NCBI GenBank assembly: GCA_048938105.1
Contig: JBHLMN010000018.1
Coordinates: 1-64,000 of the forward strand
Source of the DNA: Promethearchaeota archaeon
GTDB lineage: Archaea > Asgardarchaeota > Heimdallarchaeia > Hodarchaeales > Hodarchaeaceae
DNA: 64,000 nt
Direction: 5' to 3'
Shown here: positions 45,061 to 47,735 of the stretch, in pieces
Numbering within the stretch: position 1 is the first letter of the stretch
Layout of the letters: each line of letters begins with the position of its first letter
The notes under the pieces: model-generated
Told to the model about the DNA's origin: nothing
Database searches by the model: none
The model's input: the letters and a program-made list of their open reading frames with translations, nothing else
Translations under genes and position numbers: made by a program

Positions 45061-45564
45061 TATCATTATGTCTAAAATGTGTTGAGCTTAAGGTGGTATT
45101 GTAAAAAATCCTCTTCTATTGAAAATTGCTCCAAAACTCTTCATAATTCTCAACACGAAATTATTGTCCTTATATTCTGTGTAAAAATAATGATATAAAC
45201 AATTGATCCAATAACCAAAAATTCCGCCTTTCACTATAATAAACTGTCTATTAAATAATTATTCACACAACTTGAAAAAAGAATTCATCAATAGATCTGA
45301 TGAGTGACATGTTAGATTTTTTCTCTAACTTCTATGAATGTTCGTTCCAACTGGTACCAATTTCTAAAGGAACCGATTTACTTGAGGATATTTTTGAGCA
45401 AATGAAGGTACAGGTAAAAACTTTCTATCAATTACTACATTGGAAGCGTAATCACCTATTATTTCCTAAACCAACATTAAGTACTGATCAAATTTTTTTT
45501 CTGGGTTCATTCCTCTGTTTTAGAATCTGCTTTACTTTTAACAGGAGTACAAGGCGGGTTTAAA

Positions 45565-46041
45565 GTGACTCAAAAAGGACCAAAACTCTGTGATTCTTCA
45601 ACTTATAAAGGGAAAAAACAAACACCCCGTCCCCGTCGGGTTCTACTGGACATTGGTTGCGATGATCCTGATCTTATCAAAGCTTTAACTCAACTAGGCT
45701 TGGAAGTTGAACTGGTCTGGCGCCATGCCGTGGATCTCTTGAATTATGAAATTATCGAAATCTGTACAGCCCAACACATTGCTATCTTGGTGTCAACCAA
45801 TAGCCAGTTATTGACTCCCCCAGAAGAATGGCTCACTTATCTCATGCCTCATCGAACAAGGCTCTTTTTTCCGCCTCCGCAATTGTTGCACGACCCGAAA
45901 GGTTTAGCTCAGGCTATCTATGAACGTACTTTTACTCGACTGAAACGAAAACAAGTGGGACAGCTTAATCCACACCATTTACCTCGTAATTCTAGTAAAA
46001 ACGTTACTAATCCCCCTTCAAATAAAATTAACATGGAGTGA
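45565..46041 (+). CDS. Degenerate PIN-like (Mut7-C/DUF5615-type) protein
   Basis: RVLLD...LIKALTQLGLEV...LNYEIIEIC...ILVSTN follows the fllD...L..lG.dv...sD.eI...ilTxD pattern, with two Asp>Asn changes. Stop overlaps the tnpB start (GTGA). Confidence 0.55.
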   Translation: MTQKGPKLCDSSTYKGKKQTPRPRRVLLDIGCDDPDLIKALTQLGLEVELVWRHAVDLLNYEIIEICTAQHIAILVSTNSQLLTPPEEWLTYLMPHRTRLFFPPPQLLHDPKGLAQAIYERTFTRLKRKQVGQLNPHHLPRNSSKNVTNPPSNKINME

Positions 46042-47573
46042 GGAATCTAATGCGACTAACCCTTGAAGCAGCATGGTATCCATCCACAGAACAACATCAA
46101 ATCATTCAGGATCATATGAGACGCTTTCAAATCGTGAAACGCGTCGCATTCAACTGTCTCCTCAAAGGACACGCGAGACAACCAATTGTCACTCGGATTC
46201 GAAAATTAAATCTCCTCTCAAACGCTCGGTATATTCGCTCTGCAATTGAGGAAGCCAAAACAATTATCCAAGCTCAACAACAGCTGGTCTCTCTTTATTG
46301 CAAGGAGAGTGCGTGGAAAGTCCAACAGGCTAATCAACGCTTGAAGGACTACCAACAAACCTTGAATCAAAAACAAAAACCTTTCACGAAAAAACAATAT
46401 CAAAAACTCAAAGGACTACATACTTATTTCCAAAAGACCCAGTCTCTCCAGATGAAATGGCAAACTCATAGAAAAAATAAGACTATTCCTTCAATAGTAT
46501 TTGGAGGCAAACAAAATCTTCACCTATACCAACAAGGAAAAATATCCAAAGAGGAGTGGACTAAAAGACGGAACAATGGCATTTATTGTGTGGGTGAAAA
46601 AAACAAGCGAGGCAACGCCAACTTACGTCTTCATTATGATCCTCTTACCGACACATTCACTTTTTCGATGCTATTAGATCGTGGCCAAAGAAATGAGCGA
46701 TTGAGGGCTTTTTTATTTATCCCAATCAAGTATGAAACACTTTTTCGACGATTAACCTATAGTGAAGAGAAATACACTGTTCGTGTTTTGTACTCCACTA
46801 ATAGGACTTTTTTTCGAGTATTGGTTACATTAGATCTTTCAACCGAAATCATATCAAATAATAATGGGATAGCTGGAATAGATCTTAATCCTTCAGGGAT
46901 TGCGATCACTTTAATCTATCCTAATGGAAATTATCGCTGTTCAAGATGGTTTTTCTGCTCTGAACTAGTATATGCCCGAAAAGAGAAGCGTGACTGGTTG
47001 ATCGGTAATCTTGTGAAAAAAGCTCTCAATTGGATTACTTCGTATAAGTTGAATACTCTCACTTTAGAAGATTTGACATTTTATAAGCAGTTTGGATCAA
47101 ATAAAAGGTTTAATCGAATCAAAACAAACTTTGTTCACAAAAAATTACTTCAGACTATTCAAGCTCAAGCGATAAAACAGAAAATAACACTCAAATTGAT
47201 TAATCCAGCCTATACTTCAATTCTTGGCAAGATAAAATATCAACGCTGTTATGGTCTGAATATTCACCAGGCTGCTGCTTTAGTCATTGCCCGTCGCAGT
47301 CTGGGTTTAAATGAAAAACTTTATGCTCACATCAATGGGAAACGGCTGGTGTTGGTTGTTCCACCGATGGAAGGATGGACAAGCAAACAGATCCACCGTT
47401 TATCCCGTGAGATAGATGAGTTCACGGCTCACCTGGGTAATTCAACGAGTAAAGTGTCGGTTAGTTTACCCCGACTAATTACTCGGCGCCAAGGCTCAGG
47501 AGGCGGGATAGTCCCCCGCGATCACACCCCTACTCCAGGTAAGGGTGCACCAGTTCTCAAGACTGGTGTTTAG
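46038..47573 (+). CDS. tnpB: TnpB-related RNA-guided nuclease (clade lacking the Zn finger, with atypical RuvC-III)
   Basis: RuvC-I GIDLN, RuvC-II LEDL, and INPAYTSILGKIKY...NIHQAAALVIARR. Confidence 0.9.
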   Translation: MRNLMRLTLEAAWYPSTEQHQIIQDHMRRFQIVKRVAFNCLLKGHARQPIVTRIRKLNLLSNARYIRSAIEEAKTIIQAQQQLVSLYCKESAWKVQQANQRLKDYQQTLNQKQKPFTKKQYQKLKGLHTYFQKTQSLQMKWQTHRKNKTIPSIVFGGKQNLHLYQQGKISKEEWTKRRNNGIYCVGEKNKRGNANLRLHYDPLTDTFTFSMLLDRGQRNERLRAFLFIPIKYETLFRRLTYSEEKYTVRVLYSTNRTFFRVLVTLDLSTEIISNNNGIAGIDLNPSGIAITLIYPNGNYRCSRWFFCSELVYARKEKRDWLIGNLVKKALNWITSYKLNTLTLEDLTFYKQFGSNKRFNRIKTNFVHKKLLQTIQAQAIKQKITLKLINPAYTSILGKIKYQRCYGLNIHQAAALVIARRSLGLNEKLYAHINGKRLVLVVPPMEGWTSKQIHRLSREIDEFTAHLGNSTSKVSVSLPRLITRRQGSGGGIVPRDHTPTPGKGAPVLKTGV

Positions 47574-47652
47574 CATAATTCCTGATCAACTCTTCATAAA
47601 ATGTCTAGATTTGCAGAGGATTTATGTACCTGGTATTGTAACACTACCTTGT
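47425..47652 (+). ncRNA. Predicted omegaRNA (scaffold to about 47633, then guide)
   Basis: Stems CGAGTAA/TTACTCG (47446/47479), GTCGG/CCGAC, GCGGG/CCCGC, CACCAGT/ACTGGTG and CATAATTCCT/AGGATTTATG. CCAGGTA (47535) is complementary to the terminal TACCTGG (47627-47633). The 5' end is approximate. Confidence 0.7.
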
Positions 47653-47735
47653 TAAAAGGAAATCTTCTAAAAAGAACAACCTGATTACCGTTTTTTAGAT
47701 TGAGAATATCGAAAGAAAGACTCTGAGGATATAGA

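Follow-up and report, generated by a model that had tools for sequence, protein, structure and literature searches.

The window examined here, by which we mean the whole 64,000-nt stretch of DNA that was analysed, carries a tnpB gene on a 2.5-kb insert between a roadblock gene (end 45060) and a conserved 242-aa gene (start 47736). The left junction of this insert raises a question: why do the first eight bases of the guide stand there a second time, next to a candidate TAM? An earlier note on this DNA had proposed that TnpB binds the copy without cutting it, as a means of autoregulation or end protection. The source genome (G000) measures 5.85 Mb, and the nearest relatives of the tnpB gene are labelled Hodarchaeota. 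All sequences quoted in that note, CCAGGTA and TACCTGG among them, were found in place (Table 1).

Table 1. Features of the tnpB locus, in window coordinates.
Feature	Position	Strand	Remarks
Predicted TAM, GTGG	45093–45096	+	ends in the IS607-type GG core of the left junction; empty site in G003
8-nt copy of the guide seed	45097–45104	+	host target duplicated at the left junction; last 6 nt are microhomology with the passenger gene
Passenger PD-(D/E)xK-like nuclease gene, 3′ remnant	45099–45299	+	family by motif only; 5′-truncated at the junction
PIN/DUF5615-like passenger gene	45300–46041	+	~247 aa in relatives; 2-bp deletion near 45493 leaves 87-aa and 158-aa ORFs
tnpB, 507 aa from ATG	46050–47573	+	alternative GTG start at 46038; RuvC D278, E340, H406; without C4 zinc finger; RIIIr-4-like
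Predicted omegaRNA scaffold	47432–47633	+	predicted helices; 5′ boundary provisional
Predicted scaffold helices, first three	47432–38/47494–500, 47446–52/47479–85, 47503–07/47515–19	+	
Predicted scaffold helices, last three	47525–29/47543–47, 47548–53/47563–68, 47580–83/47617–20	+	
Predicted pseudoknot, 5′ strand CCAGGTA	47535–47541	+	in the loop of the 47525–47547 hairpin
Predicted pseudoknot, 3′ strand TACCTGG, right end of the element	47627–47633	+	GG at 47632–47633
Guide, host flank	47634–47651	+	3′ boundary of the RNA provisional; before insertion, this host DNA supplies the loop and the right arm of a hairpin

The encoded protein matches the TnpB model NF040570 with an E-value of 1.6e-9, under the curated cut-off and among weak TnpB-family matches in the HMM search, and its predicted fold is closest to Cas12f, Cas12k and TnpB structures (E 4e-11). 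Among 30 homologues, the RuvC residues E340 and H406 are invariant and D278 nearly so; the C4 zinc finger is absent, and no CxxC pairs are present. A D-E-H RuvC without C4 zinc finger is the signature of the TnpB clade RIIIr-4 (Altae-Tran 2023, PMC10691335), whose common features are the replacement of the RuvC-III Asp with an invariant His and the lack of the C4 zinc finger, and for which activity is predicted only; judged by these residues, the protein is probably RIIIr-4-like. An experimental test of DNA cutting by the D-E-H clade was not found in the literature searched. Compared with the published description of the clade, the present locus has a defined scaffold, TAM and guide, and the presumed scars discussed below hint at activity.

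The 3′ region folds at −75.4 kcal/mol (z −3.4), a value equalled by 0 of 200 shuffles. Across 16 homologues, 94.8% of the cells of the predicted scaffold are paired, compared with 32–44% in slid controls, and nine scaffold pairs show two-sided change. These results bear out the omegaRNA scaffold read from the letters by the earlier note; an Rfam search returned nothing significant. The predicted pseudoknot between a hairpin loop and the last scaffold bases is likely: its helix is paired in 97% of cells in the 16 homologues, and is retained in the protein-less copies L075 and L077, and a 7-nt complement alone has a chance expectation of ~2.6%. It falls short of proven because its changes are wobble-compatible only, with no double compensatory change among them; RNAalifold predicts the helix, but at the expense of the hairpin. 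The two protein-less copies are mini-elements of the IS607 family from genome G013 (~430 bp in L077:1303–1732, reverse strand), with left end, scaffold and predicted pseudoknot intact, and are possibly orphan guide cassettes.

An alignment of 18 distinct right ends holds as far as 47633 and breaks down at the next base; 17 of these ends terminate in GG. A nineteenth right end (L098) is also GG-terminal, and this common stop in 18/19 right ends places the start of the guide at 47634, as the earlier note had it. Genome G003 contains an orthologous site without the insert, in which the repeat is present once and which is identical at 116 of 128 positions to the window minus the element and one repeat copy; the guide is therefore host DNA from 47634 onwards, again in agreement with the original proposal. 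Directly upstream of this empty site (L052, G003 C138) the roadblock gene is absent, and the next ORF is a thioredoxin/V4R-like gene. Seven of 18 guides start with TT, above the base-composition expectation, possibly reflecting a target preference of TnpA. Two ideas on how guides might steer the spread of the element were rejected: a circle-junction guide (right end joined to left end) directing insertion, as the copied seeds all differ and the guides of close relatives are unrelated, and spread by off-target "guide walking", as sibling guides have no clear similarity.

The suggested IS607 ancestry holds as well. A MerR+resolvase TnpA, intact or decayed, lies upstream of 72–79% identical TnpBs in L082, L083, L085 and L086, with remnants in L004, L084 and L098, and the element family is therefore IS607. 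TnpA of this family inserts at GG and makes no duplication (PMC6188088). The GG core at the ends and insertion at GG are seen here in 18/19 right ends and in the G003 empty site, and terminal inverted repeats are absent; insertion without target-site duplication is found in L083 and L077 but not in the window or at four more loci. No serine-recombinase TnpA is present in the window, and the serine transposases of G000 are distant only (28–39% identity over the main matches). What this Hodarchaeales genome carries is a derivative of an Asgard IS607 element that has lost its transposase and become immobile; it is truncated at its 5′ end, and its excision is presumably impossible. A complete ancestor of the window insertion was looked for and not found, and viral contigs searched for relatives of the element yielded none. 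Of the public sequencing runs, none of RNA was listed as containing this DNA. Among the contigs of four public DNA runs there was neither a joint for an empty allele nor one for a circle, a result that does not speak for their absence. Run X3, from another study, contributed two single contigs with a depth below 3, each possibly an error or another locus. In one, 20 bp are missing immediately beyond the seed copy (window 45103–45122), a gap that covers typical cut positions and leaves the seed match in place; the other contains the right end and ~8 guide bases (window 47606–47641), followed by unrelated flank.

The locus shares with the IS607 TnpB-omegaRNA systems CboIStron (10.1101/2023.11.20.567912) and ISXfa1 (10.1101/2023.08.09.552727) a GG-terminal scaffold whose GG also belongs to the TAM, a terminal pseudoknot (here a predicted one), a flank-derived guide, a G-rich TAM differing from the right end just 5′ of GG, and a serine TnpA in relatives. 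It differs from them in its predicted TAM (GTGG in place of TGGG or GGG, with −4 as the position predicted to tell self from target), in the D-E-H RuvC and the passenger genes, in the absence of TnpA and left end from this copy, and in the guide-seed copy at the left junction, of which no description was found in those papers. Nor did we find guide-seed copies at left junctions described elsewhere in the literature searched, the coverage of which was incomplete. The omegaRNA, guide and TAM belong to an already known type of system.

The earlier note was right in expecting a G-rich TAM, but the 3′ TGG or GG it expected from a TAM screen would not suffice. The right ends have C at −4 in 11/12 cases with a perfect target next to them, and that of the element in the window reads CCTGG, adjoined likewise by a perfect target; with TGG or GG alone as the TAM, cutting would be suicidal, and G at −4 would therefore be needed, which gives GTGG as the minimal TAM prediction. 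GTGG stands at 12 left junctions, with G at −5 in 8/12, a count in which GTGG served as the search key. Support independent of this key comes from a conserved left-end motif lying 10–32 nt inside GTGG in 9/9 relatives that possess it, and from the coincidence of GTGG with host continuity in the window, L083, L085 and L003. Three truncated copies without the motif, the one in the window included, also start at GTGG. In L084 and L086 it is ambiguous which flank is original, and the distant homologues L009–L027 lie outside the end analysis, their ends not being definable within the 1.5 kb flank. A self/non-self TAM logic has been shown in CboIStron (10.1101/2023.11.20.567912) and ISXfa1 (10.1101/2023.08.09.552727), and by analogy TnpB, besides TnpA, may read GTGG.

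At the left junction (45090–45108) the TAM and seed copy include one arm of a perfect 11-bp direct repeat (45094–45104 and 47631–47641). Homology between the window and L002 starts at 45099, in frame within the nuclease-like gene. In L002 this gene runs on upstream for another 330 bp, and L033 and L038 have it in full. The last six seed bases are common to the ancestral passenger gene at the fusion point, forming a 6-nt microhomology, and the first two seed bases and the entire 8-mer match the host site. The 8-nt match reported in the earlier note is real; judged from these alignments, it is a duplicated host target within a truncated passenger gene, not the element's own left end. The PIN-like assignment of the second passenger gene, which is frameshifted in the window, is a lead only.

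To place each family-A junction, we used either the left-end motif or the point where homology begins; the junction was then compared with the guide of its own locus. A copy was found at 5/12 junctions of these few and related loci, several of them without an empty orthologue on the left side: 8 nt in the window, 7 in L003, 8 in L081, 9 in L085 and 9 in L090. The other seven junctions match over 0, 0, 0, 1, 1, 1 and 2 nt, so that the distribution is bimodal. Swapped guides reached a maximum of 5 nt over 132 pairs (permutation p ~1e-5), and an unanchored search recovered a copy in 5/13 loci, with a chance of 6e-4 per locus. The seed match at the family level is far beyond chance, and since all five seeds differ, the copy is not a conserved motif. 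An unrelated TnpB family of this genome (family B), whose right end is different, has copies of 10, 10 and 11 nt after a TAT motif at 3/17 loci, all three from one genome; matches of at least 9 nt with swapped guides numbered 0/272.

Other left junctions are damaged in different ways, with the right end intact. In L082 and L098 the TAM is fused to the middle of tnpA, and in L002 and L086 ~100–380 bp of host gene is lost on the left side. The insertion in L002 (571–900 / 3794+) lies in an HXXEE gene, ~100 bp of which is lost, and that in L086 (3826–3937 / 6291+) in a peptidase C15 gene, with ~380 bp lost. Nested chimeras occur in L081 (3841–4245) and L003 (4630–4935), where a family-A left end is followed by a family-B tnpB promoter and 5′ fragment, the fragment being fused to passenger genes. 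Family B itself comprises ~10 copies on G000 contigs C4, C14 and C6 with varied 5′ content, most inspected copies retaining the 3′ tail of a PIN-like gene upstream; a cognate transposase was not identified for this family. At G000 C6:193287–193460, the family-B right end and its downstream flank occur a second time, 1.5 kb past the first, a right-end-anchored duplication.

An ordinary 11-bp target duplication was held by the earlier note to explain the repeat equally well. Such a repeat could have been made by a DDE-type enzyme acting in trans, or by an atypical, staggered serine TnpA, as a 10–12 bp duplication from TGG; the perfection of the 11-bp repeat and the left-end spacing kept in L081 and L085 agree with this, and there are precedents for DDE-mobilised TnpBs and for Fanzor2 elements that carry duplications (PMC10691335, 10.1101/2023.08.09.552727). 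We nevertheless consider a transposase origin unlikely. A fixed-length duplication fits poorly because the length varies (7–9 nt, or 10–11 nt in family B) and because precise insertions exist: L083 and L077 have no copy, and in L083 the interrupted host gene, read by hand, rejoins in frame. The combination typical of DDE-mobilised elements, terminal inverted repeats with a duplication of fixed length at every insertion, was not found; at the window locus a transposase would find no left end, and the pattern recurs in two unrelated families.

We hypothesize instead that the seed copy was left behind when TnpB cut-and-copy repair proceeded imprecisely, as a scar too short after trimming to be cleaved, and assign this reading a probability of about 60%. 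It builds on the finding that IS607 TnpB cuts empty donor joints and drives recombinational homing or restoration (10.1101/2023.11.20.567912). By analogy with IS607 and IS605 work, an earlier complete copy would have inserted and later been excised by TnpA in trans, TnpB-omegaRNA would have cut the empty site at TAM and guide, and the break would have been repaired by copying the element off the filled sister chromosome. We propose from the present junctions that the right junction would then be an exact copy of the template, and that the left broken end would have retained the TAM and part of the target. Its joining to the copied DNA would have been in register in L081 and L085, and at the window locus and in L090 it would have come about through a template switch at microhomology. 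A cut at the empty donor joint and repair off the filled copy are common to the published model and ours; restoration is scarless there, whereas the junctions here would be its imprecise outcomes. An archaeal TnpB cuts 15–18 nt from the TAM and requires the seed from +1 to +10 (10.1101/2023.03.06.531077), and a 10-nt guide supports binding without cutting (PMC13507860). Ends with at least ~10 nt of target would be recut, and copies of 7–9 nt would therefore survive. The precise right end, the variable left end, the microhomology and the 7–9 nt ceiling together make imprecise cut-and-copy repair the simplest account.

Two other routes would produce part of this pattern. In the first, strands would be partly exchanged between target and donor junction, through branch migration or through gene conversion, during TnpA or host recombination, with no cut by TnpB. 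The in-register replacements in L081 and L085, with 2–3 nt of terminal microhomology, could stem from a recombinase intermediate, and the TT start of 7/18 guides hints at a resemblance between target and left end. This route appears quite unlikely, as it leaves unexplained why truncated junctions lie deep in passenger genes or tnpA, why no match length falls between 2 and 7 nt and why the ceiling is near the known cleavage threshold. In the second, the cut target strand would prime reverse transcription on an mRNA that includes the omegaRNA, and the product would have a constant 3′ end, a 5′ truncation of varying extent and a duplication. Target-primed reverse transcription is indeed recognised by a right end that stays fixed while the 5′ content varies, together with microhomology and duplication, but G000 (99% complete) contains no match to RVT_1, nor to Y1 TnpA or Cas1, with these families, and the scarred L081 and L085 retain the left end and promoter region, which would probably be missing from the mRNA; we regard RNA-templated homing as highly improbable.

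If the copy is a repair scar, TnpB quite plausibly occupies it without cleaving, as a by-product. Binding without cutting at TAM + 8 nt is plausible by analogy, considering that short guides bind in this manner (PMC13507860) and that little seed suffices for dTnpB to bind at TAM sites (10.1101/2023.03.14.532601); at the left junction, 12/16 of the first guide positions match, and the upstream host gene lies on the same strand, making a roadblock effect possible. The autoregulation or end protection suggested in the earlier note would, as a selected feature, have TnpB repress the element or block its excision. This now seems very unlikely: the site is part of a broken gene, 200 bp before a pseudogene, where the left-end motif is missing, and as the element is 5′-truncated and presumably non-excisable, no end is left to protect. 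The copy is moreover absent in 7/12 junctions and differs in sequence every time, two other genomic sites match TAM and seed equally well or better (8 and 9 nt), and the autoregulation shown for IS605 involves Arc, a separate repressor (10.64898/2026.09.24.754181). A sigma-70 promoter scan was uninformative, the host being an archaeon. Short-seed binding beside a TAM, as the earlier note proposed, would resemble TldR proteins (10.1101/2023.11.30.569447), which combine an inactivated RuvC with a fixed, promoter-directed guide. Here RuvC-I and RuvC-II are intact (D278, E340), the guide varies by insertion site (19 different guides), and a conserved target promoter is absent.

The nuclease-like and PIN-like pair (window 45099–46041) precedes different RNA-guided modules across loci. 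It is found with a Cas7-like and Cas5/HD-like RAMP pair in G000 C46:73000–75600 (L045), L035, L036, L040, L042 and L044, called ARAMP-like on the basis of PMC8730458 and a weak RAMP match (E 0.0018). The same gene pair accompanies a typical TnpB in G000 C6:189470–191913 (L034), L033, L038 and L050, a D-E-H TnpB in the window, L001, L002, L080 and L081, and IscB in L048. Such variety would fit either repeated swapping of effectors or a hotspot for insertions.

A broader form of imprecise cut-and-copy repair, which we put forward as possible but rather unlikely, is that this repair is stereotypically error-prone for Asgard TnpBs. Scars of TAM + 7–11 nt would then record in vivo cleavage by D-E-H enzymes, the process would build right-anchored, left-variable elements with neighbouring genes, such as the nuclease and PIN pair otherwise found before ARAMP-like Cas7/Cas5 operons, and the scar would serve as a non-cleavable site damping the element's own transcription.

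The locus belongs to an IS607 family, has an empty orthologue and a junction at which the microhomology can be pinpointed, and encodes a D-E-H nuclease; a second TnpB family with such copies is present in one genome. For a His-substituted clade whose cutting is predicted, it offers a ready-to-test set of protein, scaffold, GTGG TAM and guide, and a scar would be indirect evidence that the clade cuts DNA. If such scars stem from TnpB breaks, genomes would hold a readable record of active TnpBs and of how long a seed match can be and still escape cleavage. Should this be true, short "target duplications" of IS607 and IS605 elements would not be taken as transposase footprints or as designed autoregulation.
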